Below, in pieces: positions 1 through 64,000 of a DNA stretch of 64,000 nucleotides. This stretch comes from Prionailurus viverrinus. Its lineage: Eukaryota. Location: assembly GCF_022837055.1 (NCBI RefSeq), contig NC_062561.1, positions 552,715 through 616,714 on the forward strand, read 5' to 3'. The translations under genes and the position numbers were made by a program. Position 1 is the stretch's first letter; every line of letters starts with the position of its first letter. Under the pieces are notes generated by a model. The model ran no database searches and was not told the origin of the DNA. It was given only the letters and a program-made list of their open reading frames with translations.

Positions 1-80
1 CTGCAATAATTTTGTCCGTATAAGTGGATACTAAAAATTACAAAATTCGAAAGTCTTTTCCTTCCCTTCTCCCCACTTAG

Positions 81-249
81 GTGTATATTTGCCTTGATTC
101 TGTAGAAAGTTGTAATCTGTTTAACCAGCATAGTGACACAGATGACAGTGGAGCTAGCTGGGAATCTGAGTCTGAAAGCCTTAACGAAGCACTGAGGAGG
201 TTCAATAAGAATGTGGAAACATTTCCTCTGCTGACGGATTTTAGAACAG
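81..249 (+). CDS. RNF17: Coding exon of a Tudor-domain protein (probable RNF17/TDRD4), encoding the N-terminal part of the last Tudor domain; ends in phase 1
   Basis: Strong acceptor ccttctccccacttag|GTG at 79-80 and donor ACAG|gtatgc at 250-251. Open frame [57 protein letters not shown]. The phase (ends with 1 nt, G) joins exactly to the next exon, giving GAA-ATG-CCT. Confidence 0.55.
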
Positions 250-2818
250 GTATGCTAAATTTTCTGAGTATAATAGGATCCTTAATAAAACCGTTGTTTT
301 GTTTGAATGGACTTTTGAGGCTGGGCTATTTCTAATGTTAACTGATACTTGTACACTTTATAAGCACCATCTCTTTGAATCCACAAGACACTGTAGATGA
401 AGTGTCGTTCTCATTTTCTAGATGAAGGGAAGTAACTGCCTTGGGGCATTTCCATGTTCCAGAACTCGGTCTGCATTGGAAAATTGACTGCATAAGATGA
501 TTTTTCTAAGCCTGAGGTTTTACCATAGCTCAAATTGTGAAAGTTGTCATTCAGACCTAAATGACATTAATTTTAATTACAAACCACCTAAGTTGGTAAT
601 TTTGAAGTAGGATATGGGCACTCAGATTGTGTCCTGTCTTGTCAGGATAGGTCAAATAGTGCTGTATATTTTTCTTCTAATCCATTCCTACCCATCTTTA
701 TTGTATATGTGATTCTTTTAAGAAAAAAATGCATCTCATTACTGGTGTTGACAATTTCTGAAAACCAAGAGTGGTATCTATACATTTTTATCACTATGTG
801 ATACAGAGATGTATTTTTTCTTAGTATTTTGTGTATCAGAGGATAAGCTAAAGCAAAGGAAAGCATGAGCCTAAAATCTTACCTGATTTTACTCAATGAG
901 ATTTTAATTAGTTGTGACTCATGTTTGGCTGATAAACAGCACTCGCTTTCCCTCTGTTCCTCCCCCAAACTGTACATAGCAGTTTAGATGTCTGCTCAAC
1001 CGTCCCCACACTGTAGGTGTTCCCTGCCCTCCCCATAGAAGGTAGCATTGCCCGCCACCCTCCCCTGCCCCCCCCCCCATTTTTGCTCATGCGTACTGCT
1101 TCTTTTTCAAAAAGCACTGTGAGTTGGGACTCTCTGTACCTAATTGTGTCATCAGCAATTAGAAGGGCACCTTGTGCAAGTTAGGTGCTCATAAACATTT
1201 GTTGAAGGAGTGACAAATAAATTCATGATTTTTTCTTTTTATAAACTCAGATTTATAGCCTGGATGAGATAATTCCTTCCTCATTGCGTTCTTGTCTAAA
1301 GGGAAGTCACAGAAACCTACTGTGTGTAATGTGATTATTCATGGAGCTATACATATATTGTGCATTTTCTGTGGGTATTTTATCCTTCAGTAAAAGTTTT
1401 TTTTTTAATATGCATATGTACAAGTTGATTTGTAGGCAAATGCCTATTAAAAAGTTATTTCGTAGGTTAAAATAACATGACGACTAGGTTGGTTGGGTTG
1501 TTGTTGTGTTGTTTTGTTTTGTTTTGTTTTTAATTCTATTTTGAGATGAAACTTCAGCCATGTTTTTAAGGCTGGAAATGGTAAAAGTTGGAAGGACTGT
1601 TAACAGTGATTCAGTCAATTGCTTACTATGCAGACCGCTCTATTAGAGGAGATTCTTTACTGTTTCATTGATAGTCTTCTCTATAAACTCAAATTGTTTA
1701 CAACTCTTTCATAAAAATCTTTGTACTTTAGAGTTGTGTAGTATTTAAATACCATTTGCCCACAACCACACTTTTGTGGAGATTATGTAGAAGAGAATAG
1801 GATAACATACAGAATGAGAGGGGTGGAAGTGGAAGAAGACAGGAGCCTGAAGTATGCTCTGTCTACCCTGAAATCTAAAAGTGTACGAAGAAAAGGGAAG
1901 TAGATACTATACTAATTTTTCCAGTTTTACTCAAGCGTAGCATTCATTCATTAGATTTTTTACCAAGCAATATGGTACCAGATACCATATTAGGAATACA
2001 AATATAGTTCTGCACATAAGAACTAGTGGGCTTGCTGAGAGGGGCATGAACACTAAGTTCAGTATGAAAATAACAGCTTGCATTAAAGGTGTGTTCACAG
2101 TGCCGTAGGATCACAGAGAAACCCACGATTAGTAGTAGTCAGGGCTTTGTAAAATTGGAGCTGATCTTTGAAAGAGAGGTTTATCATTAAAGGGGGCATT
2201 GAGGAACATTCTAGATATGGGGAACAGCCAGGAGCTAAAGTAGAAGCTCAAGTGATTCTAGTTAGGTAACACTTGAGGATATGTGGTAGGAGATGGTTGG
2301 GAGTAGATTGTGAAGAACCCTATATATTGCAGTACTAAGGACTTGATATTGGAGATGTTTATAATGCCGTTGAAGAATTATAAACAAGGGCAATTGAATT
2401 TTTTAAATTTAATCCTGGTGGTTTTCTACAGAATGGATTGAAGGAGGACCACATTGAAAGCAGGAATAGCAGAAAGCATCTTTTGCAGAAGATGATGGCT
2501 CAAATGAAAAGACATTTGGGAAGTCTAAGATGCAAGGGCAGTGCAAGGATGGTCTAAGCCATGGGCAGAGGAACTAGGAACTGTGAGAATGGGAGAAGTA
2601 CCTTTCTTCAGAGTTTAGTGCTTGGGAATTAGGAGAAACAGGTGCATAGACTGTAAGCAGAAACATGCAGGATCCAGTGTTTGACAAACTGTTGAGTGTT
2701 TAGTTCTGAATGATGGGTTTATGGTGTTTACGTTTTCTTTGTACTTTTCTGTATTAAAAACAATTTTGTAAAGAAAATACAAAGCAATGTTATTTTTTCC
2801 TTTTTTCTGTCTTTCTAG

Positions 2819-2954
2819 AAATGCCTTGCCTTGCTGAATATGATGATGGCTTATGGTATAGAGCAAAGATTGTGTCTGTTAAAGACTTTAATCCTCTAGC
2901 TGTCCTGGTGCAATTTGTTGATTACGGATCAACTGAAAAGCTGACAATAAACAG
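2819..2954 (+). CDS. RNF17: Tudor-domain barrel exon ([46 protein letters not shown])
   Basis: Acceptor ttttctgtctttctag|AA at 2817-2818 and donor AACAG|gtttttt at 2955-2956. Canonical Tudor signature (G..C.A.Y.DG.WYRA.I....V.FVDYG..E.V....L). In phase with the exon at 81-249. Confidence 0.65.
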
Positions 2955-3124
2955 GTTTTTTTTTTCTTTTAAGTCAACTTAGTTGAATTAGAATTCTTAG
3001 AGCTTTTTAAAATAATTATTGGGAAAGTTTTGGTTCTTATAAAAGAAAAACTATTTTAAAGCTATTTATTTATTAGGATTTTTTAAATCTATAAGTCTCT
3101 TTATTGTAAGATATAACAAACTTT

Positions 3125-3895
3125 ACCATTTTAGCCATTTTTTTCTTTTTTTTATTTTTCTGTTTCTTTTTTTTAATTTAATTTTTTCTTTTTTAAAATT
3201 TACATCCAAATTAGTTAGCATAGAGTGCAACAATGATTTCAGGAGTAGATTCCTTACTGCCCCTTACCCATTTAGCCCATCCCCCTCCCACAACCCCTCC
3301 AGTAACCCTCAGTTTGTTCTCCATATTTATGAGTCTCTTCTGTTTTGTCCCCCTCCCCGTTTTTATATTATTTTTATTTCCCTTCCTTATGTTCATCTGT
3401 TTTGTCTCTAAAGTCCTCATATGAGTGAAATTATATGATTTTTGTCTTTCTCTAATTTCACTTAGCATAATACCCTCCAGTTCCATCCACGTACTTGCAA
3501 ATGGCAAGATTTCATTGTTTTTGATTGCCGAGTAATACTCCATTGTATGCATATATATATATATATATACACACACACCACATTTTCTTTATCCATTCAT
3601 CCATTGATGGACAGTTGGACTCTTTCCATACTTTGGCTATTGTTGATAGTGCTGCTATAAACATGGGGGTGCCTGTGTCCCTTTGACACAGCACACCTGT
3701 ACCCCACGGATAAATGCCTAGTAGTGCAATTGCTGGGTCGTAGGGTAGTTCTATTTTTAGTTTTTTGAAGAACCTCCATACTGTTTTCCAGAGTGGCTGA
3801 ACCAGCTTGCATTCCCACCAAAAATGCAAAGGCATTTTGGCTTTCTCCGCATCCTTGCCAACATCTGTTGTTGCCTGAGTTGTTAATGTTAGCCA
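3125..3895 (-). mobile_element. LINE-1 (carnivore L1) 3' end: ORF2 C-terminus, 3'UTR and poly(A), seen as poly-T on the + strand
   Basis: The minus-strand ORF gives ...TMEYYSAIKNNEILPFASTWMELEGIMLSEI (L1 ORF2 C-terminus). Poly-T at 3125-3210. Confidence 0.85.
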
Positions 3896-3899
3896 TTCT

Positions 3900-4560: not shown

Positions 4561-4564
4561 TAAT

Positions 4565-5034: not shown

Positions 5035-7380
5035 GCTAACATACAGTGTATGCAGTGTGCTCTTGGTTTTGGGGATAGATTCCCATGATTCATCACTTAC
5101 ATACTAAACCCAGTGCTCATCCCAACAGGTGCCCTCCTCAATGCCCATCACCCATTTCCCCTCTCCCCTGCCGCCCTCATCAACCCTCAGTTTGTTCTTT
5201 GTATTTAAGAGTCTCCTATAGTTTGCCTCCCTCGCTCTCTGTTTGTAACTATTTTTTTTCTTCTTCCCTTCCCCCACGGTCTTCTGTTAAGTTTTTCAAG
5301 ATCCACATATGAGTGAAAACATGATATCTTTCTCTGACTGATGTATTTCACTTAGCATAATACCCTCCAGTCCCATCCACGTTGCTGCAAATGGCATAAT
5401 TTCATTCTTTCTCATTGCCAAGTAGTATTCCATTGTATCTATAAACCACATCTTCTTTATCCATTCATCCATCATTGGACATTTAGACTCTTTCCATAAT
5501 TTGGCTATTGTTGAAAGTGCTACTGTAAACATTGGGGTACATGTGCCCCTGTGAATCAGCACTCCTGTATCCTTTGGATAAATTCCTAGTAGTGCTATTG
5601 CTCTATTTTTAATTTTTTGTGGACCCTCCACACTGTTTTCCAGAGGAGCTGCACCAGTTTGCATTCCCACCAGCAGTGCAAGAGGGTTCCCGTTTCTCCA
5701 CATCCTTGCCAGCATCTGTTGTTTCCTGAGTTTTTAATTTTAGCCACTCTGACTGGTGTGAGATGGTATCTCAGTGTGATTTTTATTTGTATTTCGCTGA
5801 TGATGAGTGACGTTGAGCATTTTTTCATGTCTGTTGGCCATCTGGATGTCTTCTTTGGAAAAGTGTCTATTCGTGTCTTCTGACCACTTCCTCACTGGAT
5901 TATTGGTTTTTTGGGTGTTGAGTTTGGTAAGTTCTTTATAGATTTTGGATACTAACCCTTTATCCAGTATGTCTTTTGCAAATATCTTTTCCCATTCCAT
6001 CGGTTGCCTTTGTTTTGTTGATTTTTCTTTTTTTCAGTGCAGAAGACTTTTATCTCAATGAGGTCCCAATAGTTCATTTTTTCTTTTAATTCCCTTGCCT
6101 TTAGAGATGTGTCAAGCAAGAAATTGCCACGGCTGAGGTCAAAGAGGTTGTTGCCTGCTTTCTCTTCTAGGGTTTTGATGGTTTCCTGTCCCACATTTAG
6201 GTCTTTCATACATTTTGAATTTATTTTTGTGTGTGGTGTAAGAAAGTGGCCCAGGTTCATTTTTCTGCATGTTGTGGTCCAGTTCTCCCAGCACCATTTG
6301 CTAAGGAGACTTTTTTCCATTGGATACTCTTTCCTGCTTTGTCAAAGATTAGTTGGGCATACATTTGTGGGTCCAATTCTGGGTTCTCTCTTCTGTTCCA
6401 TTGGTCTATGTGTCTGTTTTTGTGCCAATACCATTCTGTCTTGATGATTACAGATTTGTAGCAGAGGCTAAAGTCTGGGATTGTGATGCCTCCCACTTTT
6501 GTTTTCTTTTCCAACATAACTTTGGCTATTCAGGGTTTTTGTGGTTCCATAAAAAGTTTAGGATTATTTGTTCTAGCTTTGAGAAGAATGCCTGTGCAAT
6601 TTTGATTGGGATTGCACTGAATGTGTAGATTGCTTTGGGTAGTATTGACATTTTAACAATATTTGTTCTTCCAATCCATGAGCATGGAATGTTTTTCTAT
6701 TTCTTTGTGTCTTCTTCAATTTCCTTCATAAGTTTTCTGTAGTTTTCAGCATACAGATCTTTTACATCTTTGGTTAGGTTTATTCCTAGGTATTTTATGG
6801 TTCTTGGTGCAATTGTAAATGGGAATGATTTCTTGATTTCTCTTTCTGTTGCTTCATTATTGGTGTATAGAAATGCAACCAATTTCTGTACACTGATTTT
6901 GTATCCTGCACATTCATAGATATTTTGGTTGATTCCACATTTTAGCTATTGTGAATAATACTGATATGAATGTGAATGTATAAATATCTCTTCAAGACGC
7001 TGCCTTCAGTTCTTTGGGGGTATATACTGAGAAGTGGAATTGCTGGATCACATACTCGTTCTATTTTTAATATTTGGAGGAGCCAGCAAACTGTTTTCCA
7101 TTTTATACCAGGTGTCCCAGGAGTTCCAGTTTCTCTCTACATCCTCACCAACACTCATTATTTTCTGGGGTTTTGATACTAGCCACCCTAGTGGGTGTGA
7201 GGTTACATCTCATTGTGGCTTTGATTTGCATTTCCCTGATGATTAGTGATGTTGAGTTCTTTTCATGTGCTTGTTGGCCATTTATGTATCTTCTTTGGAG
7301 AAATGTCTACTTTTTAATGTATATTTGCTATCATTCTGTAGGTTGTTTTTTCACTTTGTTGATTATGTCCTTTGCACAGT
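5035..7380 (-). mobile_element. LINE-1 3' half (ORF2 RT-thumb to C-terminus plus 3'UTR), 5'-truncated
   Basis: Minus-strand ORFs at 5296-5715, 5595-5828 and 5952-6320 translate to L1 ORF2 (…[29 protein letters not shown]…, …DEWIKKMWFIDTMEYYLAMRKNEIMPFAATWMGLEGIMLSEI). Confidence 0.85.
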
Positions 7381-7604
7381 TTTTTTTTTTTTTCAACATT
7401 TTTTTTTTAATTTATTTTTGGGACAGAGAGAGACAGAGCATGAATGGGGGAGGGGCAGAGAGAGAGGGAGACACAGAATCGGAAACAGGCTCCAGGCTCC
7501 GAGCCATCAGCCCAGAGCCTGACACGGGGCTCGAACTCCCGGACCGCGAGACCGTGACCTGGCTGAAGTCGGACGCTTAACCGACTGCGCCACCCAGGCG
7601 CCCC
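7381..7604 (-). mobile_element. Carnivore tRNA-derived SINE (CanSINE/SINEC)
   Basis: Reverse complement of GGGGCGCCTGGGTGGCGCAGTCGGTTAAGCGTCCGACTTCAGCC...; poly-T side at 7381. Confidence 0.9.
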
Positions 7605-7722: not shown

Positions 7723-7824
7723 GTTTTAGTTTTGGCTGTTAGAGAATTTTAATCAGGACATTCTGAACATTTTAAGAATTTCTTTTGTGACAGACTGCGT
7801 CAGATTCCTCTTCATCTTATGCAG

Positions 7825-7983
7825 TATCCAGCCCGAGCCATAAAGGTTCTCTTGGCAGGGTTTAAACCTCCCTTAAGAGATCCAGGGAAGACCAGAATAC
7901 CATATTGTCCCAAATGGAGCATGGAAGCACTGTGGGCTATGATAGACTGTCTTCAAGGGAAACAACTTTATGCTTCTTCCATG
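7825..7983 (+). CDS. RNF17: Exon encoding the C-terminal extension of the Tudor domain ([53 protein letters not shown])
   Basis: Acceptor tcttcatcttatgcag|TAT and donor CCATG|gtaact. 159 nt, phase 0-0. Matches the extended-Tudor pattern lP.qAikc.LagikP....W...A...F. Confidence 0.55.
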
Positions 7984-8586: not shown

Positions 8587-8776
8587 GGGCACCTGGGTGG
8601 CACAAACATCTGACTCTTGATTTCTGCCCATGTCATGATCTCATGGTTAGTGAGTTCAAGCTCCACATGGGGCTCCACACTGTCAGCATGGAGCCTACTT
8701 GGGATTCTCTCTCTCTTCTCTTTCTGCCCCTCCCCTGCTCATGGGCCCTCTCAAAATAAATAAATAAACTTTAAAA
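8587..8776 (+). mobile_element. Carnivore SINE
   Basis: GGGCACCTGGGTGGCAC...TCAAAATAAATAAATAAAC. Confidence 0.85.
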
Positions 8777-9039
8777 AAGGATTATTTCCATCTAAAAAGA
8801 TTAGGATATATATAGTATTTGAACTCCTCCTTAGGCATTCAAATAATAAGTAACAATAATAAAAATAATAAAAAAGTAAAAACAATAATAAGGTAGGTCT
8901 GGGAAGTGAATTGAACTGTATCTGAAAAGTAGGAAAGACCAGAATAGGAATTCTGGTCGAAGTCTTGAAAAGGATGGACGTGTACTAGTTTTGAATTTAA
9001 TGCCGTAGAACTGATCAAAAAGTCCAAATAAACACGTAC

Positions 9040-10765
9040 AGCACTCACGTTCCACACCAAGCACACAGAGAGAAACATACAACACACACTGTACTTATAA
9101 CATGCAAAATAAATGGCAAAGACACACATGCACCACATATCAGACATAAAATATACACCAAACATATACCACACAAAAAACCATGTCATAGAACACACAC
9201 TTACCAAAAACCTTTTACACAAACTACACATAAACCACAAACTTCCCACACACATCATAAAAAACCACACTCAGAGCACACATATACCACGTACATAAAA
9301 CACATTACATACCCACTTGAAATACAACAAACAAGAATTACACAAAACACACAAGACACACAAATACCGCATATAGCATGCATACCACACACATGCCACA
9401 CAACCACAAGAATACCATTCACACACACCATGTATTCACTGAGACACCAAACATAACACATGAACAACTCAAAAACACACAACACTTAACACACACACAT
9501 ACACCACCAATAACCTACACCACATATACAGCACTCACACCCCACACATAATACAGAGAAACATACAACACACACTACACATACAGAACACACACAAAAA
9601 CCAAATCACCCAAACACCATATACTCATTCAATACATACCAACCACACAAATACATCATTCAACATTCAAACATCACACACCACACCTACATCATACCTA
9701 CAACACATTTATACTATAAACTGCACACAACCCATTCATCACATATATACCATTCACACTGCACATACACCACACATAAATACCATACACCATATACTTA
9801 CCCAACATATAACACAAACACCACACCAAAAACACAAGATACCACACACATATGCCACACATACCTGTCACACAGTACACATGTACCATGTGCACACACA
9901 TATCACACAAACATCAAATATACAACACACACCAAACATATAGCACACTGATACACCACAAAAACACCACACACAAATATACAATATGCACTACAGAAAT
10001 ATCAGTCACACACCACATGGGCACCACATATAACGAACCCAACACTGGAACACCCACACTGCTCACAACAGACACTAGCATAAACCACACACTAAGGCGG
10101 GTAGCACACACACAACACACAAAACACACAGGGAATATAAACACATACTGCGTACCTGACACTAATACACTATTTACACACCACACATACCAAATATCTG
10201 CCACGCAAACATATCACACAACAAACACCATGCACACCACTCATACACCACACATACAACTCTTATACTACACACTTATACTACACACACTGCACACACA
10301 AGTATATGCCACATACACATACATGTTTGATACACCATGCACATCTCACACATAATGCACACATTACACACAACGCATACTACACACACACCATGCCCCA
10401 GTCAAAACCACTCACACTGCTCATATTACCAGACACACACAACACACAGCACACAAGCATCACATACACCAAACATACAGCACACACAAACTACACATAA
10501 CCCACATCTAACCCACAAAAACCACACCAAAATATAGCACACTACAGAAATATTATTCATACACCACATATACACCACACACATACCAACATAACACATA
10601 AACCACACACACACTAAAACACCACTCAGCACCACACATAACACACACAAAACGCACAACACATACAGAATACACATAACATACTGCACACACATTACCC
10701 ACATATCACATACACACCATGCGTACAACACACACACCACACCTATATCATGCATATAACACATT
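9040..10765. repeat. About 1.7 kb degenerate AC-rich (CA/CACAT-type) satellite-like array with apparent higher-order periodicity
   Basis: Continuous A+C-only composition on the + strand (TG-rich on the minus strand). Similar ~60-90 bp blocks recur at roughly 500 bp spacing (9040-9100 vs 9530-9590; 9940-10030 vs 10525-10575). The His/Thr-rich + ORFs and Cys/Val-rich - ORFs here are low-complexity artefacts. Confidence 0.85.
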
Positions 10766-10837
10766 TATGGAAAAAAACAAAGGTTCAAATAAGAAAGTCC
10801 AGATCATGTTTAATATAAATATTCTTTCTTTAAAAAA

Positions 10838-11048: not shown

Positions 11049-11860
11049 TAAATATTCTTTCTTTAGAGGATTAGCATGTCACAAAGGGGTGTCCCATAGA
11101 CAGAATCTAGCCTGAACCTGTTTTATTTAGTGCAGTGTTTAAAATTGGAAAAACTCACCCCCCAAAATTCTGTATTTCTAACTTCTGGTTAAATATTATA
11201 AATTCCAGGAATCCTAGGTCTCCTGTCCAAACTGGCACTCAGCCAGAGTGGTATAGCAACAACCCCTTTGAATGGAAATACACTCTTTAATTCAGCCTGG
11301 TCCTCAACACTATTGTTTCGGCCCAACCTACCCAGGATTTGGGGATTCCTGACGTACTGGCTCTGACAAGAATGAGCTCTTAATGAAACAACTAGAAAGT
11401 ACATTTTGAAAACCCCTAGAGGTACATATCATGCTTCTGTGTGTGCAGAGTAAATAACTTATGTATGGTTTCTCTCAGGAAGCCAGTGGAAACACAGAGT
11501 TGTAAGTATTTTTACAGATAAATGTATTTATTTACCACCATGAATAACATTCAGAATTTGGTCAGTTTATGCATAAAGGTACATGGGTAGAATATAAATG
11601 AATTTTAACAGGGATGGTAGTGTTAAAGCCCATTGGCTCAATCTAGGTAAACTTTTGGGAAGACTTAAATTTTAAATAAAGTATAAGAATGGGAAGAATG
11701 GGATTTAATAGGAAACCATCACAAAGACCTCTTTAAAGTATAAATTATTAATAAATTTGGAGAATGCCTTTTCCTTCCAGTGTGATACAGGCAAAATGTA
11801 GGAGAGAAAAGCCAGCAAAGACCTTACTGTATTTTCTTGACAACTGTCTTTTAATTTTAG

Positions 11861-11959
11861 GCTCAGGCACCAGAACAAATAGTGACGTTATATGAAGATG
11901 AACAGTATCCAGTTCATATGTCATTAGTAGAAATGGGGCTGGCAGACCAAGACGAATGA
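11861..11959 (+). CDS. RNF17: Terminal coding exon ([32 protein letters not shown]) of the Tudor gene. Stop TGA at 11957-11959.
   Basis: Acceptor ttttaattttag|GCT. In phase 0 with the 7825-7983 exon. The stop codon is immediately followed by gtaagt (11961-11966), suggesting a 3'UTR intron. Confidence 0.5.
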
Positions 11960-12299
11960 TGTAAGTATCATGACTTCTTGTTCACCCTTATGATCAGCAT
12001 AAAGCATGCAACTAACATAGTGGAGATTAATACTAAATTGCCCATAAAAGCATCTTTGGATTTTCCTTGATTTCTCAAAGAATGATAACAAAGCTCAACA
12101 AGACTCTTCTAGACTTCTTTGTAGGCCCTTTTCACCTATTGAATACCAGAACCAGAGAGGATCTGCATCTGTAAGAATGCTTGGAATGGCTATCATGACT
12201 ATTCATAGTACCAGATAGTTGTTGGGGATGGGCACTAGAAGTAATTTAAGCACACAAGGATATGGTATGCACAGAACACTGTTGAACAATCCATGTCCT

Positions 12300-12305
12300 A
12301 ATAAA
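12300..12305 (+). promoter_or_regulatory. AATAAA polyadenylation-signal candidate downstream of the Tudor-gene stop
   Basis: AATAAA hexamer about 340 nt after the stop. A second hexamer lies at 12584-12589, after a possible 3'UTR acceptor at 12427-12428. Confidence 0.25.
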
Positions 12306-12920
12306 GCTATTGAACTGCTTGGGTAACCAGCTGTTTATTCATCCACATAAATGTAACAGGTGATTCAGTAACTAGTTTGAACATTAAATTAAGCAAAGGT
12401 TTTAAATAACATGCATTTTGTTTTTCAGGTAAACACTTCAGAGCATCTACAGCAGCCCAGAAGAAGGTTTTCTGTTACATGTAGGCCATTTCAGGCTTAC
12501 TTTTCTTGACTTGTTCTGCAGTTGTGCTGGCGTTTTTTTTCTTACATGTTAAACTACTAGGAATTGTTTGAAAAAAAATAGTTAATAAATATTTGCTTTC
12601 AAGTATTTTCTGGTTTTATTTTACAATAATTTCAAAAGCAAGTATTTTAGGAATATGAAAAAATGTAGTTCATTTTATAACGAATATATATTCAGTTTAA
12701 GTAAGACCTTCTTAGTACAGTTGGAAGCTCCTATAGTGACCTTCCCCAATCATTCTCTTCCCTGAAGAGGTGAACACTGTTGTGATTCTGGTGTTTATTA
12801 TTCTTACGTTCTTATTTTGCTGCATATGAATGCATCCATAAGCAAGATATAGTACGGCTGTGTATATTTTTTTAATGCGTGCACTATCGCACCTTTAATT
12901 TTCTCACTATTGGCACTGTT

Positions 12921-13019
12921 TATCCATGTTGGTATGCAGAGCTCTACTTTATTCACTTCTTTATTCTTCTATCCATGTTGGTATGCAGAGCTCTACTTTA
13001 TTCACTTACTTTATTCTTC
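12921..13019. repeat. Tandem duplication of a ~49-bp unit (tatccatgttggtatgcagagctctactttattcactt[a]ctttattcttc), two copies
   Basis: Direct adjacent repeat with a 1-bp indel, in the interval between the RNF17 and CENPJ 3' ends. Confidence 0.8.
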
Positions 13020-14263
13020 TATCTGTGCACATAATTCTGTTGCTAGATATTTAGACTGTTGCCAGTTTTTTCTCAATTACAAATATGTGTACATGTTACG
13101 GGTTTTCTAGTATATGTACTTAGTAGTGGAATTTACTAGGTCACGAGGTGATTGTTCTCCAAAAGGTGGTTCACTCCATTTACTACCATCAGTAGTCTGA
13201 GTCCCTTGGCAACATGTGGTGTGGCCAGTATATGATACTAGCATAAAAAGGTATCTTATTATTTCAATATGCATTCACTGGTTTAGTAGTCACTTGTTTG
13301 CTTTTTCATATCCTTTGTCCATTTTTGTTTTGTTTGTAATTATGTTATCTGTAGGAATTCTTTACATATTCTGGATATTAATCCTTTGTCAAGTATGTGT
13401 ATATATATATATATATCTTCTAGTCTGTGGCTTATCTTTTCTTTTTTGTGGTATCTTTAGACACACCATTCATCAAGCTGTTAAGGTTTGCGCTGTGCCT
13501 CATTTAAAAATCCTTCTCTATCCTGAGATGATGTATATAACTCTTTATTTGAGAAGTTTGCAACTTTTCTTAAATCATCTGGAATTGATATATTTAGCTT
13601 TTTTAAGGTTATTGTAGTGACTACAGCAACCTGTAATTATTATGTAAGTGCCTTGCAGGTGCCTTGTCCTTCCTTCAAGGACATCTTGCTTCTGTCAGCC
13701 TACAGTTTTATAGGTTATAACATCAGGGTACCTGTGGTTGTTCAGTTAACACCAGCTAGTTATTTTTCACACGCCCTCCATCCTCAAGTGTCCTATTCTG
13801 ACCACTTACGTATCCTCACTGTAACTTTTCTCCTGTGATGCTCTGTACTCACAGAATGAACTCTTCTACCTGTGATGTTTGACCTATTTATATTTATTCA
13901 TGGTTTTAACTTCCCATTCCATTATATTAAAGAACCTCTACAGTAGATAAATGCTTTAATTTTAGTACTAATTGAACACAGTATATTCTGACTGGAGACA
14001 TTCTCTTATTCCTTGACTAAACTTTCTGTGCAAGTCTTGTTCTGTGGCTGATGTGCTCATGAAAAATCTGTGCTATTGTATTTCTTGTACTTCTTGGTTT
14101 TTATAACCATCTTCAACAAGTAAGAGTCTCATTATTTTTACAGTCTACACAGTTCATAAAGTAATATTTCTTTCCTTAGACATGCATTCAACTGTAGAAG
14201 ACAGGTGAATTAAAAATGAAAGCTGTTCTTGTACATTTCAAAGAATATAAAAAACTATGATGT

Positions 14264-14269
14264 TTTATT
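14264..14269 (-). promoter_or_regulatory. CENPJ: AATAAA polyadenylation-signal candidate for CENPJ (TTTATT on the + strand)
   Basis: First AATAAA on the minus strand, about 130 nt downstream of the CENPJ stop at 14395-14397. Confidence 0.35.
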
Positions 14270-14394
14270 TTATAATCCAAACATAATCTCTTCCACTTAT
14301 ATATAAATGAAACCACAGAATCCACAAGAAGTGTACATTTTTTGAGAAGAAAATCAAGTTAGTGTTATTTCATGATGAGTCACATATAGGATCA

Positions 14395-14587
14395 TTACAA
14401 TTTTGTATCCATTAGGATATTACCATCCTTGTCTTTAACTCTTATTCGACCAGATGTGTACTTTGTTTCTTGATGACCATTTGTATATACGGTTTTAACA
14501 GTGCCATCTGGATATTCCCGTCTCTTGAACTGGGCAGTGTGTAGTTCTCTTTGGCCATTATTAAACTCTATGATTTTGTTGCCATCT
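14395..14587 (-). CDS. CENPJ: CENPJ last coding exon ([64 protein letters not shown]), G-box/TCP10 C-terminal domain
   Basis: Acceptor tttaaatttacag|AGATGG (minus strand) and stop TAA at 14395-14397. The translation matches the CENPJ C-terminus almost residue for residue. Confidence 0.85.
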
Positions 14588-14805
14588 CTGTAAATTTAAA
14601 ATAGAATTTATTTAAAAATATTAAATATGTAACAGGAAAATGATCTAAAAGTGGCTTTTGATTCTGACAGTTCTCTCTTTTCTTAAAGCCTCCTGTGGTC
14701 CCTTCCTTATACAATGCCTTCTTTGCAAATTCTTTCCACCCTGTTTCTGCTTCACGCTATTAGTTCCAATGATCAAATTAGCACTTAAATGTGCCCATGA
14801 AAAGG

Positions 14806-17286: not shown

Positions 17287-17696
<410 letters not shown>

Positions 17697-17746
17697 TCTC
17701 TGGAAATGTTTAAGCCATGTAGAAAAACACTGCTATGTAAACCTAC

Positions 17747-17887
17747 CACTCTCTCATCTGGCATGACTTGCTTCACATCACCATTAAAGAAAGTGACGGT
17801 GACAGTCTTCCCATCTGCACTCACTTCTTTTCGAGTTCCATTTGGAAACAATATAACATGGCACCCATTCTTATAAACCTTTTCTAT
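17747..17887 (-). CDS. CENPJ: CENPJ exon ([47 protein letters not shown])
   Basis: Acceptor tctctttttttgtag|ATAGAA and donor GAGAGTG|gtaggt. 141 nt. Matches the G-box region of CENPJ. Confidence 0.85.
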
Positions 17888-21159: not shown

Positions 21160-21390
21160 GGGCGCCTGGGTGGCTTAGTCGGTTAAGCGTCAGACTTCGG
21201 CTCAGGTCATGATCTCACAGTTCTTGGGTTCAAGCCCCACATCGGGCTCTGTGCTGACAGCTTAGAGCCTGGAGCCTGCTTCAAATTCTATGCCTCCCTC
21301 TTTCTGCTCCTCCCCCACTCATGCTCTGTCTCTCTCTCCTTCAAAAATAAATAAAAACATTAAAAAATAAAAAATAAAAAAAACATTTAC
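21160..21390 (+). mobile_element. Carnivore SINE with TSD
   Basis: SINEC consensus flanked by direct repeats AAAAACATTTACA (before 21159, after ~21380). Confidence 0.9.
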
Positions 21391-45500: not shown

Positions 45501-46705
45501 AAACCATCAAAACCCTAGAGGAGAAAGCAGGAGGAGAGGAGAGAAAGAGGAGAAAACCTGTCTGACCTCAGCCGCAGCAATTTCTTACTCAACACATCTC
45601 CAAAGGCAAGGGAATTAAAAGCAAAAATGAACTATTGGGACCTCATCAAGATAAAGAGCTTTTGCACTGCAAAGGAAACAATCAACAAAACTAAAAGGCA
45701 ACCAAAGGAATGGGAAAAGATATTTGCAAATGACATATCGGACAAAGGGCTAGAATCCAAAATCTATAAAGAACTCACCAAACTCCACACACAAAAAACA
45801 ATAATCCAGTGAAGAAATGGGCAGAAGACATGAATAGATACTTTTCCAAAGACATCCAGATGGCCAACAGACACATTAAAAGATGCTCAAGGTCACTCAT
45901 CACCAGGGAAATACAAATCAGAGCCACACTGAGATACCACCTCACACCATCAGAGTGGCTAAAATGAACAAATCAGGAGACTATAGATTCTGGCAAGCAT
46001 GTGGAGAAACAGGAACCCTCTTGCACTGTTGGTGGGAATGCAAACTGGTGCAGCCACTCTGGAAAACAGCGTGGAAGTTCCTCCAAATATTAAAAATAGA
46101 ACTACCCTACGACCCAGCAATAGCACTGCTAGGAATCTACCCAATGGATACAGGAGTGCTGATGCATAGGGGCACACGCACCCCAATGTTTATAGAAACG
46201 TTTTCAACAATAGCAAAATTATGAAAAGACCCTAAATGTCCATCAACCGACGAATGGATAAAGAAGATGTGGTTTACATATACAATGAAATACTACTTGG
46301 CAATGAGAAAGAATGAACTCTGGCCATTTGCAGCAACGTGGATGGAACTGGAAGGTATTATGCTAAGTGAAATACGTCAGTCAGAGAAAGACAGATACCA
46401 TATGTTTTCACTCATGTAGAACTTGAGAAATTTAACAGAAGACCCTAGGGGAAGGGAAGGGGAAAAAATAGTTACAGAGAGGGAAGCAGGCAAACCATAA
46501 GAGACTCTTAAATACAGAGAACAAACTGAGGGTGGATGGGGGGTGGGGGAAAGGGGAAAGTGGGTGATGGGCATTGAGGAGGGCACTTGGGATGAGCACT
46601 GGGTGTTGTATGTAAGCCAATTTGACAATAAATTATATTAAATAAATTTAAAAAAAAAAGAAAAGAAAAGAAAAGAAAAGAAAAGAAAAGAAAAGAAAAG
46701 AAAAG
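42560..46705 (+). mobile_element. LINE-1, 4.1 kb, 5'-truncated: essentially complete ORF2 (EN, RT, C-terminus) and 3'UTR, ending in poly(A)/(GAAAA)n. Antisense to CENPJ.
   Basis: The ORF2 start (MTLKPYLSITLNVNGLNDPIKRHRISEWIKKQEPSICCLQKTHF) lies at 42582. The RT lies at 44235-45111 ([20 protein letters not shown]...). The C-terminus lies at 45883-46224 (…[32 protein letters not shown]…). The ORFs are broken by stops. (GAAAA)9 lies at 46650-46705. Confidence 0.9.
46650..46705 (+). repeat. (GAAAA)n microsatellite, about 9 units, at the L1 poly(A) tail
   Basis: aaaagaaaagaaaag... perfect pentamer repeats. Confidence 0.95.
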
Positions 46706-48545: not shown

Positions 48546-48574
48546 CACATAGTGTTCTGCAACCATTTTAAACA

Positions 48575-48595
48575 ATTTTTTAATGTTTATTCATT

Positions 48596-48627
<32 letters not shown>

Positions 48628-48787
48628 CACAAGCAGGGGCAGAGAGAGAGGGAGACACAGAATGTCTCCAGGCTCCAGGCTTTGAGCTGTAAGCACAGAG
48701 TCGACTCAGGGCTTGAACCCACAAACCATGAGATCATGACCTGAGCTGAAGTCAGATGCTTAACCAACTGAGCCACCCAGGCACCCT
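48575..48787 (-). mobile_element. Carnivore SINE with TSD (TGTTCTGCAACCATTTT)
   Basis: Direct repeats flank the element. (GA)n in the tail region. Confidence 0.9.
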
Positions 48788-48884
48788 ATGTTCTGCAACC
48801 ATTTTTAAAATACACAAAAGTGTTTTAAAGAAATGGCCAGTGCATATTATACACCTGGTCAAAGAAGATAAGGTAATTTGTTTT

Positions 48885-49091
48885 TTGTTTTTTGTTTTTT
48901 TTTAAGTTTATTTATTTTGAGAGAAAGAGACTGGAGCACGGGGGCAGAGAAAGAGAGAGAGAGAATCCCAAGCAGACTCCACACTGTCAGCACAAAGCGC
49001 AACGTGGGGCTCAAACTCACAAACTGTGAGATATGACCTGAACCAAAACCAAGAGTCAGACGCTTAACTGACTGTGCCACCCAAGCACCCC
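48885..49091 (-). mobile_element. Carnivore SINE
   Basis: SINEC consensus in reverse orientation. Confidence 0.85.
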
Positions 49092-49119
49092 AAGAAAGAA
49101 AAGCTAAGTTTTTTTACTT

Positions 49120-49264
49120 TTTTTTTTTTAAGTTTATTTGAGAGAAAGAGCAGGGCAGCGGGGGCAGAAAGAGAGAGAGGGAGAGAATCCCACAAATCCT
49201 GAGAAAAGACCTGAGCTGAAACCAAGAGTCAGATGCTTAACTGACTGAGCTACCCAGGTGCCCC
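49120..49264 (-). mobile_element. Truncated carnivore SINE
   Basis: Reverse SINEC lacking the central part. Confidence 0.7.
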
Positions 49265-49291
49265 AAAAAAGATAAAGTCAGTTTATTTTTT

Positions 49292-49499
49292 TATCATTTT
49301 TTTAAGTTTATTTATTTGAGAGACAAAGACAGCACGAGTGGGGAGGAGCAGAATGAGAGGCAGAGTGAGAATCCCAAACAGGCTCCATGCCGCCTGCACA
49401 GGGCCCAACACGAGGTTCAAACTCACAAAACCGCGAGATCACGACCTGAGCCAAAACGAAGAGTCCGACGCTTAACCGACTGAGCCACGAGGGCACCCC
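49292..49499 (-). mobile_element. Carnivore SINE
   Basis: SINEC consensus in reverse orientation. Confidence 0.85.
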
Positions 49500-49699
49500 A
49501 ACATAAGTTTTAACAAATGTCTGTACCATATTAAAAATACATGGGAAAAATGACTGGAAGGAAAAATTCCAAAATGGTATCACAGCTACCTTTGGATAGT
49601 TCAGTTATAAACATTTTTCATTCTATACTTAAGCTTCCAAACTTTCTGCAAAAAGTACTACTTTTAAAATCAAAGTATTTTTTTAAATAGTTTAAGTTA

Positions 49700-50060
49700 G
49701 GGGCATCTGGGTGGCTCGGTCAGTTAAGTGTCCAACTCTTTCTCTTTTTTTTTTCAGGTTTGTTAATTTTGAGAGAGAAAAAAAAAGAGCACACATGTGG
49801 GCAGGGGAAGGGCAAAGAGAAGGTGAGACAGAGAATCCCAAGCAAGCTCTGCCCTGTTAGGCCAGAGCCCAATGTGGCGCTCAATTCCACAAACCATGAG
49901 AGCGTGGCCTCAGCGGAGATCAAGAGTCCAACACTTAAATCAACTGAGCCACCTGGGTGCCCCAAACGTCCAACTCTTGATCTTGGCTCGGGTCTTGATC
50001 TCACGGTCATGGGTTCAAGCCCTCTGTTGGGCTTCACACTGGGCAAGAAGCCTACTTACA
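49700..50060 (+). mobile_element. Carnivore SINE (+) split by a nested SINE insertion
   Basis: The head (GGGGCATCTGGGTGGCTCGGTCAGTTAAGTGTCCAACTCTT) lies at 49700-49740. The remainder (GATCTTGGCTCGGGTCTTGATCTCACGGTCATGGGTTCAAGCCC...) lies at about 49979-50060. Confidence 0.85.
49741..49964 (-). mobile_element. Nested carnivore SINE (-) inserted into the + SINE, with an 11-bp TSD GTCCAACTCTT
   Basis: TSD copies at 49730-49740 and 49968-49978 bracket a complete reverse-orientation SINE. Confidence 0.9.
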
Positions 50061-50082
50061 TAGCTTAAGTTATAATTTACAT

Positions 50083-50291
50083 TTTTTTCAATGTTTACTT
50101 ATTTTTGAGAAATAGAAAGATGGAGTGCAAGAAGGAGAGGTGCAGAGAGAGAGGGAGACACAGAATGCGAAGCAGGCTCCAGGCTCCCAGCTGTCAGCAC
50201 AGAGGCAATGCGGGGCTTGAACTCACAGATGGTGAGATCATGATCTGAGCCAAAGTCGGATACTCAATCGACTGAGCCACTCAGGCACCCC
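50083..50291 (-). mobile_element. Carnivore SINE
   Basis: SINEC consensus in reverse orientation. Confidence 0.85.
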
Positions 50292-50499
50292 TACAATTTA
50301 AAGCACCTGTGCTTTGGTAGGCATTCACAGTTTACTACATGATATGATGGAAAGGAGTTTTCCATGTAAGTTTTAGAAGTCCATCGCATCAACTATACAG
50401 CCATTAAATGGAACGTGACAGATGTATAAGCGGGAAAAAACAATCTCCAAAATTTATTATAAGGTGAAGAATGGCCTATAAAAAACGTGTTTTCAAAGT

Positions 50500-50700
50500 G
50501 TGTGGATTGCTCAGTCAGTTAAGTGTCCAACTTTGGCTCATGTCATGATCTCACAGCTCCAGGGTTCCAGCCCCACATCAGGCTCTGTGCTGACAGCTCA
50601 AAGCCTGGAGCCTGCTTTGGATTCTGTCTCCAGTCTCTCTGTCCCTCCCCTGCTCACACCCTCTCTCTCTCAAAAACTGAATAAATATTAAAAAAAAAAT
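50500..50700 (+). mobile_element. Carnivore SINE (head slightly truncated)
   Basis: ...TGCTCAGTCAGTTAAGTGTCCAACTTTGGCTCATGTCATGATCTCACAG... Confidence 0.85.
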
Positions 50701-51318
50701 TTTAAGTGTTTTCATTTGTGTAGAAAGAAGATTACATACCCACTCCACATATGCTTTCATATGCACAGAATCTTTTTAGAATATACAAATGAAATGGGAA
50801 TATAAGTTCCTCTAGGAAAAGGAATAGGAACCCAAATATAGGGAAGAAAGGAAACTTCAATTTTACTGTATTTCTTCTTGGTCCTATCTAGCAAGTTAGC
50901 GCATGAGTAGTAAAAAAAATAAAAAATAAAAAAATAAGTAAATACATAGTCATTTTAAAAAGTGCACACACAAAGGTTCACCTCATAGTGACACAAACCA
51001 CAGATTGGATACTCTAGTTACAAAAGAAACTTATGTTACCTCAATTCATAATGAAGCAATTAATGTTACAGCCTTGAGAATAAGACATAGGCTTAAATTA
51101 GAAAATCTGAAATCAGAATGCATCCATATCTTTTGTACTAGCGGCCATTACATTATTTAGACCCACAAAACAAATCAAATTTTAACAATCACCTACTTAG
51201 ACTTCTACTGAGCAACTAGAACGATTAGGATTTTAAGTGTTCTGATAAGATACCCCTACTGATAAGATAAATGTTAAATTTATAACATTCTGATACCTAT
51301 TTTATAATGCTGACTTAC

Positions 51319-52948
51319 CAGGTGGTTGGTCTTGACTTGGGTTTAACTTGGGTTCACTTCCCAAGTGTGAATCTGATTTGGGTTTCAGTTTCAAAGCAGG
51401 AAAGAATTTCATCATGAGATCTGACGTAGGAGGAGGGCTTGTGCTCCTACTGGATTTCCTCAAGTCTTCTCCCTTCTTGACTGGTGCGACCTTCCTTTTT
51501 ATTGCTTTGTCTGGTACACATATTTCACTCTTATTAGGATAGGCTGTCTGAGGAGTCCCATTAGTGACCTCTGTCCCAAGAACAGCATCATGTTTAAATG
51601 AATTCTCTTCAAGGTCAGTCCAAGTTCTTTCATCGTCAAAGTCAATTTTACTCATACTTACAGATGAGGGTCTTCTTGAGGACTCAGAAACTTTGTTTTT
51701 CAAGCTTTCTATTATGATAGACTCATCACTACTGTAATCTTTATCAGACAAATCTAAATCAACATCTCTCCTTTGATCTTCTTGCATCCCAGTGTCCCTA
51801 AAAGGCCCCTTACCATCACAGACCTGTGGACTGTCTTCTCTGCTGCTGAAACCCCTCTCTTTATCGTCAGTTGATGGTTTTATGGTAACATCAAGTTGTT
51901 CCTCAGAGTCGGTGCTACTGTCACTGTCCATGGCACCTTCGTCATCACCTACATTCCACCGAGTCTGATTTTCAGAAGTGCTAGTTTGGAATGCTTTCCT
52001 ACTGACTTTACAAGACTGTTCCCTATGTGCTTCAGGTGAGGACACTGAATCAGTCTGTTTGGGTGCGACCTCACACTCACACACATTATCAGGTTCAGTA
52101 CAGTCTGGAGCCTCATTGTGGTTACACTGAAGAATGGGATCCAGTGTCACCATCTTCCCCTGCTGTACGGCTTTGACAGGGGTGGAAGACAGCCGGTGCC
52201 CTTTGCAGATCTGCTGGTCCCTCTCTAAGATTTTCAGTACAAATGAAGAATTACTGGAAAATGATATTTCATCAGCAGCTTGCTCCAAAAACAAAAATTC
52301 ATCTAACTCCAAATTTTCCTTTTCCTTTTCTCGTTCCCACTTTTCTAACTTTTTCTGAAGAGAAATGTCAAGAGAAGATTCTGACTTTTTCAAGGTCTCA
52401 TTTATTGGGCTCTTAGAAGCCATGCAGCTGACCAGCCCTGCTGAAAGAGGAAGTCTGTCTCTACCTGGTGTCTTATTCCAGACTTTGCAACCAACATCAC
52501 AAGGTTTTGCACACTCGGGCATTTCTCTACTATTAGATTCAACTTTTTTTTCTAATTTGATCTGGTCTCTAAATTGCCCATCACATTTCTTCCCTGCCAG
52601 TATTTTCAATCCTGATGGAGAAAGACTTTTCCTGTTGTTACCCTTAAGCACTTTTGGCTTCTGACTAAGTGTGACAAAACCACTGCTGGCCCTAGCTTTA
52701 CTGTTCTTTTTAACAGGAGGGTTCTCTGTACACAGTTCTTTGTTTATTAGAGCAGTTTTCCGCTGGAATTGCTGTCTATCCATTTTAAACACAGGTTGGT
52801 CCTCTGAAATGCTCTGATTAGGCACTAGTTTACTTTCTCTCCCTTTCTGAGACTTAGATTTAGCATTAGTAAATCTAGCTAAACCTTCTCCTCGTTTCAA
52901 GAATGGTTGTTTTGGCTTTGCTTTGATTGGCAATGATCCTTCTGCTTC
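51319..52948 (-). CDS. CENPJ: CENPJ large exon (1630 nt, 543 codons, uninterrupted): [32 protein letters not shown]...NPSQDQPPG
   Basis: Acceptor tctttattttag|GAAGCAG and donor CCACCTG|gtaagt. The 543-aa ORF in the track is collinear with the large exon 7 of human CENPJ (about 75-80% identity by eye). Confidence 0.9.
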
Positions 52949-53176: not shown

Positions 53177-53454
53177 CTAATCATAAAAATAAAGTTATTT
53201 AGCATGCAAGTCAAGATGTGGTGAATATCTGCCTCAGTGTGCCTGACAGAGATACCTCTGATTACACTGAGAACTAACCATTTTCAAAGTCACAGACCCC
53301 GTATGAGAATCCAAAGAAAGCTATAATCCTACCCCATCTCCCAAAATACAGAAAAATACAACACTCTACACGATTGGGAAAAAAAAAAAAAAAAAAACCT
53401 TCTGAAGTTCATTTTTTGCCTATAGATTATATAACTTTAAAATATACTTTGAGG

Positions 53455-53668
53455 GGGCGCCTGGGTGGCGCAGTCGGTTAAGCGTCCGACTTCAGCCAGG
53501 TCACGATCTCGTGGTCCGTGAGTTCGAGCCCCGCGTCAGGCTCTGGGCTGATGGCTCGGAGCCTGGAGTCTGTTTCCGATTCTGTGTCTCCCTCTCTCTC
53601 TGCCCCTCCCCCGTTCATGCTCTGTCTCTCTCTGTCCCAAAAATAAATAAACGTTGAAAAAAAAAAAT
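53455..53668 (+). mobile_element. Young carnivore SINE (CpG-retaining) with 16-bp TSD AAAATATACTTTGAGG
   Basis: TSD at 53439-53454 and 53677-53692. Near-identical to the copies at 34636 and 54155. Confidence 0.95.
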
Positions 53669-53692
53669 TTTTTTTTAAAAATATACTTTGAG

Positions 53693-53900: not shown

Positions 53901-53963
53901 TAAGAATAAAATATATTTTGAAAATACTTCATCAAATAAGCACTTTAAGAAAGATCCTTGACA

Positions 53964-54427
53964 GGGGCGCCTGGGTGCCTCAGTTGGTTAAGTGCCAACT
54001 TCAGCTCAGGTAATGATCTCACAGCTTGTGAGTTCAAGCCCTGCATCAGGCTCTGTGCTGACAGCTCAGAGCCTGAAGCCTGCTTCGGATTCCGTCTCCC
54101 TCTCTCTGCCCTTCCCCTGTTCACACTCTGTCTCTTAAAAATAAATAAACGTTGGGGCGCCTGGGTGGCGCAGTCGGTTAAGCATCCGACTTCAGCCAGG
54201 TCATGATCTCGCGGTCTGGGAGTTCGAGCCCCGCGTCAGGCTCTGGGCTGATGGCTCAGAGCCTGGAGCCTGTTTCCGATTCTGTGTCTCCCTCTCTCTC
54301 TGCCCCTCCCCCGTCCATGCTCTGTCTCTTTCTGTCCCAAAAATAAATAAACGTTGAAAAAAAAATTTAAAAAAATAAAAATAAAAATAAATAAATAAAT
54401 AAATAAACGTTAAAAAAATTTAAAAAC
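53964..54427 (+). mobile_element. Carnivore SINE whose A-rich tail hosts a second, nested young SINE (54155-54397). Outer TSD AGATCCTTGACA.
   Basis: The outer direct repeat lies at 53952-53963 and 54428-54439. The inner SINE is flanked by AAATAAATAAACGTT(G) at 54138-54153 and 54398-54413. Confidence 0.85.
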
Positions 54428-59799: not shown

Positions 59800-59830
<31 letters not shown>

Positions 59831-59837
59831 CAAAAAA

Positions 59838-61807: not shown

Positions 61808-61906
61808 ACGGAGTTTTTCATTCTTCAGGCAGGGGTTGTAAGCCAGTAGCCCTAGGCCAAATTTGGCTCTACATCTTTTATTCTGCTAGGTCTTTTTAAA
61901 ATTTTA

Positions 61907-62130: not shown

Positions 62131-62141
62131 CTTTAGGGGCA

Positions 62142-62370: not shown

Positions 62371-62627
62371 TCTTCAAACTTTCATTTTATAAATAAATAT
62401 GACTGCCGTTAAGCAGGGCACACATGCTCCAGAATGGCCCAGCTCCCACCTGTCCCAATCATATACCACCACCACCATTTCATAGTTATCTGCAAGGCCC
62501 CTAAAGAAACTGGGGTTCACCACATATGACAGAGTAATGGTAGAAAAAACCTGTCAAACAACTAAAGGTGAGAAATGTCACTGTTCACTGATGAGCTGCC
62601 TGAAGGCTCTGTGTAAGCACAAAGTAC

Positions 62628-62751
62628 CTGGGAGTGGTTGGTGCCCAGACACAGTAGTGAGCAGCTTCTCTTGTTCTTCCAGAAGTCTCTGTAGTTGCTC
62701 GAAATGCTGCCTCCTCAGCTGTTCCTGCTTCTTCTGTTGTACTTCTTTCAG
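62628..62751 (-). CDS. CENPJ: CENPJ exon ([41 protein letters not shown])
   Basis: Acceptor tttaaaaag|CTGAAAG and donor CTCCCAG|gtactt. 124 nt. Confidence 0.85.
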
Positions 62752-63249
62752 CTTTTTAAACATAAAACTTGATTAAACTAACTTTACATTTCTTTAGGGA
62801 TCTTTGCTCCTTACATTTATCTTAACCCCTCTCATCTCCCTTTTCGTATCATCTCTAATACAGAGTTTCAAAGAGTGATCCCTAAGTAACTACATCTGCC
62901 ACCCAAACTCTAAAATCCTATTTTTTATGAAGGAAACATAGAAACAGAAAAAGTCATTTGAATCTGTAGAATCTTACAATACGATAGGTATCAGTACATT
63001 TATGATCAACTTTTCCCCTTTAATATCTAATCAGCCATTTCCAATTCAGTTTTTACCAAACAAAGCAGAAACTTAAAAGATATTGTTATCTCGAGTGTTG
63101 TATGTTACATATCAGACCTGTGTTAATGTTTCACATTAGATAAAAGGCAAAATTTGGTATTTTGAGGATTTCCCAGGAAAGGGGAAGAAAACTTTCCATC
63201 AACAGAAACTTGCAATAATGCAAATACATTAGGCCAAATTCTCTTGTAC

Positions 63250-63693
63250 CTGTTCAAGCTTTTTAAAAAGTGGGTCTTTATAAGGCACTTCTTTGCATTC
63301 ACTTGAAAGATCTGAGACAATGTCATTTTTGTTATCTTCCCAGTGTCCAGGAGCACCCTGACATGCCACTATTTGTGGTTCCTCTTTAGTTAAAGGAAAC
63401 ACTGCATGTGTTTCAGACTTATTTGATTGTAGTTTATAAGGGCTGTTAGAGTCCAACTTCTGTTCTTCATGAAGTGAATCTTCTTCACTTACAAAGGTGA
63501 AGCTATCTGAAAAATGCGTGGCTTTAACAGGAAAGCTGGTAGAAATGTTCACACTTGCTCGCTGCTCTTCGTCTGCTTCCAAAATAGGAAATCCACGATT
63601 TAATATGACCCCAGCCCGAGAAGGATTGGTCATCCACTGGGTTAGGAAGCTCTGCCCACTGTTTAACTCTGAAGAGGCTGGCATCACGAACAT
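63250..63693 (-). CDS. CENPJ: CENPJ first coding exon. ATG at 63691-63693 (minus strand): [65 protein letters not shown]...DPLFKKLEQ. The exon probably extends as 5'UTR to an acceptor at about 63759-63761.
   Basis: The N-terminus matches human [46 protein letters not shown]... Donor GAACAG|gtacaag. The upstream tttctacag|GTGTTGG lies in the 5'UTR. Confidence 0.9.
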
Positions 63694-64000
63694 TTTAGTC
63701 CAACGACACTATTATATTTAAATAATATACAAGCTGGAACTGCTATTAATTTCCAACACCTGTAGAAAGAAGATGCCAACAAAAAACATCGGTTAAAGCT
63801 GTTCTACCCAAACCGCGAACCAGCACAAAAATCTACTGGATATTTCAAATTCAAAAGACTTAATCAGCAAAGCAACTGGGCAAGAAGTTACGTGGTTTGT
63901 TTTTGTTTTTGTTTTTTTTTAAGTCTTAAAAAATATCCAAATTGAGTGAATCAAAAACCTAAGTTCCTTGCTGACAGAATCAGCATATAGATGTTATTTA

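Follow-up and report, generated by a model that had tools for sequence, protein, structure and literature searches.

The 64,000-nucleotide stretch of DNA analysed here (hereafter the window) carries two spliced genes that converge tail to tail. Its minus strand holds all coding exons of CENPJ, and its plus strand the four final exons of a Tudor-domain gene that, by its position, would be RNF17 (TDRD4), a germ-cell factor of the PIWI-interacting RNA (piRNA) pathway. Transcripts of both genes would end within the 2.4-kb gap separating their stop codons, and the remainder of the window is intron and intergenic DNA populated by about 43 short interspersed nuclear elements (SINEs), fragments of L1 elements, one SRRM1 retrocopy and simple repeats. 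An earlier note, made from the letters of the window and a list of their open reading frames (ORFs), had proposed such a convergent arrangement of a Tudor gene and CENPJ in a felid genome, and the present computational analysis follows up that proposal.

The CENPJ gene on the minus strand

A tblastn comparison of five named CENPJ/CPAP proteins with the window produced 16 collinear blocks running from position 63693 down to 14398. Splice reconstruction, in which the junction search was limited to GT or GC donors and AG acceptors, joined these blocks into a coding region of 16 minus-strand exons (63693 to 14395), opening with an ATG at 63693–63691 and closing with a TAA at 14397–14395. Specifically, the exons occupy positions 63693–63250, 62751–62628, 57298–56999, 55061–54950, 53176–53074 and 52948–51319 (exons 1–6), 47805–47673, 37898–37733, 34117–33875, 30119–30035 and 21565–21501 (exons 7–11), and 21010–20891, 17887–17747, 17424–17340, 17037–16917 and 14587–14395 (exons 12–16). 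The spliced coding sequence measures 4065 nt and encodes 1354 amino acids, all 15 of its introns are of the GT-AG type, and its sole stop codon is the terminal TAA. An acceptor site is found approximately 70 nt upstream of the ATG, and therefore a noncoding first exon of CENPJ presumably lies beyond position 64000.

Several comparisons establish the identity of this gene. The longest ORF of the window (51302–52933, 543 amino acids) overlaps the large 1630-nt CENPJ exon (51319–52948, minus strand), and in the ORF scan it matches the Pfam family for the CPAP tubulin-binding region. Searching a database with this ORF gave 159 matching proteins at E ≤ 1e-20. Those that bear a name are called centromere protein J or centrosomal P4.1-associated protein, and the named CENPJ matches come from bat, gorilla, pangolin and camel. 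No carnivore CENPJ entry appeared among these 159 matches, and the highest identity reached was 77%. The full-length product scores 83.5 bits with Pfam Tubulin-bind_CPAP (PF25779, cut-off 22) over residues 323–389, and 169.5 bits with Tcp10_C (PF07202, cut-off 36) in four stretches beginning at about residue 1168. The Tcp10_C family was also matched by the minus-strand ORFs at 17495–17851 and 14395–14592, and the last exon (14395–14587), whose translation contains the stop codon and G-box repeats, matches it with an E value of 8.1e-17. Among structures in the PDB, the product is similar both to the CPAP G-box (4BXP, E 3.8e-85; 4LD1, E 7.2e-83) and to tubulin-binding fragments of human CENPJ (5ITZ_D, E 1.2e-52; 7Z0F_P, E 4.3e-36). 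Judged by Pfam, PDB and named homologues, the minus-strand gene is CENPJ.

CENPJ/CPAP is a centriole protein whose PN2-3 region binds tubulin and whose C-terminal G-box builds centrioles, and the gene is also known as the microcephaly gene MCPH6; by this established knowledge, the same functions would be expected of the gene in the window. Its product retains the domain order of mammalian CENPJ/CPAP, the PN2-3 tubulin-binding region being followed by the C-terminal Tcp10_C/G-box domain, and is collinear with it over the full length, with no structural difference between the two. At 1354 amino acids it is slightly longer than human CENPJ, which has 1338. Its C-terminal 940 residues share 82% identity with the bat protein and 80% with the gorilla protein. 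The large exon is fast-evolving, with its nearest proteins found at 76–77% identity (Myotis 77%, gorilla 75% and pangolin 67%).

The CENPJ exon at 17887–17747 has a minus-strand SINE (17472–17697) some 50 nt downstream of its donor site. The read-through ORF at 17495–17851 therefore fuses G-box residues to SINE-derived sequence, and may mislead ORF scans.

The convergent Tudor-domain gene and its name

Inspection of ORFs on the plus strand revealed Tudor-like peptides at 2821–2955 and 7819–7983. A homology search with the concatenated Tudor pieces retrieved a protein of 206 amino acids (P0121, from a 1.3-kb Logan contig, with a precomputed Tudor domain) that covers four pieces collinearly at 85% identity, and tblastn with P0121 located four exons in the window, each of which has a counterpart in camel. 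The fourth exon from the end (81–249, 82% identity) is bounded by an AG at 79–80 and a GT at 250–251. The third from the end (2819–2954), supported by tblastn, a Pfam TUDOR match and its splice borders, encodes the Tudor core, and the second from the end (7794–7983), which is 95% identical to P0121 and 100% identical to the exonic part of P0122, encodes the post-core part of the extended Tudor domain. The last coding exon (11861–11959, 91% identity) follows an AG at 11859–11860 and ends, as its translation indicates, in a TGA at 11957–11959. AG/GT borders are canonical and phases are compatible across all four exons, and the spliced peptide of 197 amino acids scores 60.9 bits with Pfam TUDOR (PF00567, cut-off 23). 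An AlphaFold2 model for the Tudor gene, built on an alignment of six sequences, reached a mean predicted local distance difference test score (pLDDT) of 38, too poor to name the gene by its fold. P0121 shows a distant similarity to the extended Tudor domain of TDRD1 (E 6.5e-11) and, more weakly, to that of SND1. The plus-strand gene therefore belongs to the Tudor family, but none of the Tudor proteins with a PDB entry is its orthologue.

The two genes meet tail to tail, with 2435 nt between the TGA of the Tudor gene (11957–11959, plus strand) and the TAA of CENPJ (14395–14397, minus strand). This gap (11960–14394, assigned to neither strand) accommodates both 3' untranslated regions (UTRs) and the intergenic spacer, and a motif scan found AATAAA signals in it for both genes, at 12300 and 12584 on the plus strand for the Tudor gene and at 14264 on the minus strand (TTTATT on the plus strand) for CENPJ. 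From 12276 onward its unique sequence aligns with camel at 69% identity. The structure claimed in the earlier note, namely CENPJ on the minus strand and terminal Tudor exons on the plus strand with stop codons about 2.4 kb apart, is borne out by the intact coding sequence, the four canonical exons and the Pfam match described above, and both stop codons fall exactly where it had placed them. Tandem Repeats Finder reports within the gap, and possibly inside a 3' UTR, a 49-bp unit repeated in 2.1 tandem copies at 98% identity (12921–13023).

The same arrangement is found in camel, where contig KB016566.1 carries CENPJ and, about 3.6 kb further on, a convergent gene with a TUDOR product. The correspondence extends over practically the whole window, since blastn aligns positions 33–63967 collinearly with the camel CENPJ locus in antiparallel orientation, introns and inter-stop gap included, at approximately 65–85% identity. 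At the pangolin CENPJ locus no informative neighbour was seen. Two features of the camel locus itself deserve mention. The annotated CENPJ model (KB016566.1, 10001–37843, 868 amino acids) apparently ends before the last exon, because the last exon of the window gene and the inter-stop gap align past the annotated gene end, and several segments of the window match two places in the locus, suggesting a duplication or an assembly artefact there.

It is this conserved convergent Tudor neighbour in camel, together with published gene orders, that points to RNF17 as the name of the plus-strand gene; the name was reached by position and domain type rather than by direct alignment to a named RNF17. 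RNF17 and ATP12A have been reported to flank CENPJ (PMC6369804), and on goat chromosome 12 the genes follow one another in the order ATP12A, RNF17, CENPJ, PARP4 (PMC11874128). RNF17, or TDRD4, is a Tudor-family protein, described in mouse as homologous to Drosophila Qin and as repressing the piRNA ping-pong cycle (PMC10040813), and the double naming as RNF17/TDRD4 also occurs in a further paper (PMC3929691). Like RNF17, the gene in the window is the convergent neighbour of CENPJ and ends in an extended Tudor domain. The earlier note's appeal to the known adjacency of RNF17 and CENPJ in mammals accordingly stands, by way of synteny.

Two observations weigh against this name and lend some weight to the alternative that the plus-strand gene is a different Tudor-domain gene, either another TDRD member or a lineage-specific duplicate. 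The name RNF17 is carried by none of the nine homologues from the Tudor-peptide search, all of which are nameless, and the window holds a single Tudor domain and no RING finger, as it takes in only the last 197 residues, whereas RNF17 has its RING finger and further Tudor domains in parts of the gene upstream of the window. However, the same convergent Tudor gene adjoins CENPJ in camel with its four exons conserved, the published gene orders place RNF17 directly beside CENPJ (PMC6369804, PMC11874128), and the peptide is only distantly related to the PDB sequences of TDRD1, SND1, TDRKH and TDRD3, so that it is no orthologue of these. A different Tudor gene is on this evidence very unlikely, and RNF17 is the name preferred here.

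SINE content and the probable cat-family origin of the window

The window is rich in SINEs derived from transfer RNA (tRNA). A 24-nt head motif (GCCTGGGTGGCTCAGTCRGTTAAG) has 31 matches at no more than three mismatches, against none expected from shuffled sequences, and the SINE tail quoted in the earlier note has nine at the same stringency, again against none expected; the copies have the consensus tail CTCAAAAATAAATAAACTTTAAAAA. Scanning with a profile of the SINE copies gave 48 hits, four of which are short palindromic self-matches, and of the 44 that were kept (28 on the plus strand, 16 on the minus strand) two are halves of one element. The total after this clean-up is about 43 copies covering approximately 14% of the window, in good agreement with the 40 or so carnivore SINEs that had been claimed. 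The copies show the features of CanSINEs, namely a tRNA-related head, a CT-rich middle, an A-rich tail and presence in many dispersed copies, and the sole matches of the window in Rfam are three marginal tRNA hits on the plus strand (21164–21248, 25448–25532 and 39631–39716; 29.4–30.8 bits, gathering score 29) that fall on SINE heads and are not tRNA genes.

Three groups can be told apart among the copies: old, diverged elements with a CTCTTGATTT-type insert, a main group with GACTTCGGCTCAGG, and a young group of four. Their closest known counterparts are the feliform CanSINEs (SINEC_Fc1/SINEC_Fc2; subfamilies I and II), with which they share the tRNA head with A and B boxes, the CT-rich stretch, the A-rich tail with AATAAA, a young subgroup in which a T of the A box is replaced by G, and the habit of inserting into or beside older copies. 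SINEC_Fc1, which subfamily II type B resembles, is described as the recently active feliform family. The older copies in the window differ from feliform subfamily I in reading TCTTGAT-like where the motif given by Walters-Conte et al. (2014) is TCCTGAT, a comparison made by quoted motifs. A literature search did not find the SINE sequence as a printed string.

The young group carries the evidence on the origin of the window. Walters-Conte et al. (2014) defined feliform subfamily II by the motif GGCTCGG, and marked out its type B by an indel of T close to position 51, T>G in the polymerase III A box and low divergence (PMC4084570). They found subfamily II to be exclusive to Felidae, except that Prionodontidae share some of the older type A insertions; all 49 type B insertions of their study were restricted to clades of felids, with ages of up to ~5 million years (PMC4084570). 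The four young elements of the window are 95–96% identical in pairwise comparison. A one-base deletion is common to all four, the A box TGGCGCAG is present in three of them, and GGCTCGG in two. One of them, on the minus strand at 7380–7604 with both the A box and GGCTCGG, lies in an intron of RNF17. The other three are on the plus strand in introns of CENPJ: the copy at 34636–34865, whose A box is mutated to GGCACAG, the copy at 53454–53683, which lies directly upstream of an older SINE, and the copy at 54154–54383, which directly follows the A-rich end of the older SINE 53963–54153. Target-site duplications are readable at the first three, and at the fourth the flanking repeats are unreadable where it abuts the older element.

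Because these four elements carry subfamily II type B features published as restricted to Felidae, an origin of the window in the cat family is supported, indirectly, and the earlier attribution to a felid genome is upheld to the same degree; the species would not be identified by such sequence markers. Several points nonetheless weigh against this origin. Two of the four young SINEs read GGCTCAG rather than GGCTCGG, although the altered base belongs to a CpG and might be the product of deamination. The assignment to type B was made by the motifs quoted in the paper, not by its figure or by a Repbase consensus, and the restriction of type B to Felidae comes from a single study, which covered 93 loci and sampled few feliforms outside Felidae (PMC4084570). 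Moreover, none of the searches returned a felid or other carnivore sequence.

The same RNF17-CENPJ locus might alternatively be considered as that of a non-felid feliform, such as a hyena, mongoose, civet or linsang, or of another carnivore. In its favour, there was no felid sequence for direct comparison, the SINE body consensus is of a type common across Feliformia, and some subfamily II type A insertions were traced to an ancestor that Felidae and Prionodontidae share (PMC4084570). Against it stand the four copies with type B markers, their 95–96% likeness and the target-site duplications at three of them, and the finding that every type B insertion of the published study lies in a felid clade (PMC4084570). 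The nearest relative retrieved, an orthologous Logan contig (L003) and the closest that is not identical, also argues against it, being ~89% identical to the window and lacking the three SINEs in its span, the young copy at 7380–7604 included. A non-felid source is thus unlikely, and the reading of the window as carnivoran nuclear DNA, most likely of the cat family, with CENPJ and RNF17 in convergent orientation, is held with high confidence.

Two further ideas were drawn from the anatomy of the locus and are improbable as they stand. The type B SINEs may be species- or clade-specific, or even polymorphic, markers within the cat family and, separately, with their 3' ends so close, a piRNA gene of the germline and a gene for a centriole protein may be subject to antisense interference. 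The SINE catalogue could serve felid phylogenetics only once the source species is known.

Within 2.2 kb of a CENPJ intron (48564–50713), about ten SINEs in both orientations are nested or abut one another. Frequent insertion into existing SINEs and tandem arrays have been reported for Felidae (PMC4084570), and this cluster is an insertion hotspot of that kind.

Composition of the window and its other insertions

Across the 64 kb the ratio of observed to expected CpG is 0.23, the GC content of 2-kb segments ranges from 34 to 45%, and 4659 bases (7.3%) are coding. Six-frame translation yields 41 ORFs of at least 100 amino acids, most of which, on reading, are repeat-derived or of low complexity. 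The CpG depletion and low coding share, together with the spliced genes, the SINE and L1 content and the end-to-end alignment with camel, place the mammalian origin of the window beyond reasonable doubt.

These properties also decide against a prokaryotic or viral reading, according to which the window would hold a defence or mobile system and its eukaryotic appearance would be an artefact. What can be cited for it is a weak Pfam match to MbeD/MobD (E 0.0085, below threshold) and the marginal Rfam tRNA matches. The MbeD/MobD match was dismissed, being below threshold and falling on a coiled-coil CENPJ exon, and the Pfam scan found no significant prokaryotic family match among the scanned ORFs of the window. 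The tRNA matches are SINE heads and the largest ORF is a CENPJ exon, and neither GT-AG introns, nor CpG depletion, nor so small a coding share, nor collinearity with camel over the whole 64 kb fits such a system. The prokaryotic or viral reading is refuted, its residual probability being negligible, and the earlier note's advice that any claim of a novel defence or mobile system be dropped is sound on account of the spliced genes, the coding share and the camel collinearity.

The mammalian locus described here is already known biology, and its practical use is foremost that of a filter: the window is vertebrate host DNA, and candidate defence or mobile systems derived from its ORFs or repeats are to be discarded. 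Examples of features that could give rise to such candidates are its repeats, its reverse-transcriptase fragments, the tRNA-like matches and the 543-amino-acid ORF. Apart from filtering, it supplies a clean and intact CENPJ gene model and a catalogue of SINE insertions.

Other insertions lie in the CENPJ intron bounded by exons 47805–47673 and 37898–37733. A plus-strand fragment at 41196–42229, whose database match is named 'serine/arginine repetitive matrix protein 1-like', is an SRRM1-like processed pseudogene situated between L1 fragments; it comprises the C-terminal part of the gene, is 5'-truncated and intronless, gives frame-shifted tblastn blocks and is followed downstream by A-rich runs. 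A degraded L1 element occupies 42655–46415 on the plus strand, with endonuclease and reverse-transcriptase remnants (Exo_endo_phos, E 3.1e-08 at 43049–43423; RVT_1, E 1.1e-06 at 44626–45111) and multi-copy matches within the camel locus. The camel locus contains no orthologue of the stretch from 39.6 to 47.1 kb, and therefore the insertions in it postdate the split from camel.

The last intron of the Tudor gene contains a 1.75-kb block of strongly strand-asymmetric composition (9050–10800; A 46%, C 33%, T 15%, G 5.7%). A tandem array was considered for this block (9.05–10.8 kb) and rejected, as Tandem Repeats Finder made no call there and the composition is that of A/C-rich low-complexity sequence. 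Its flank and beginning (8758–9746) align at 70% with a mammalian Logan contig.

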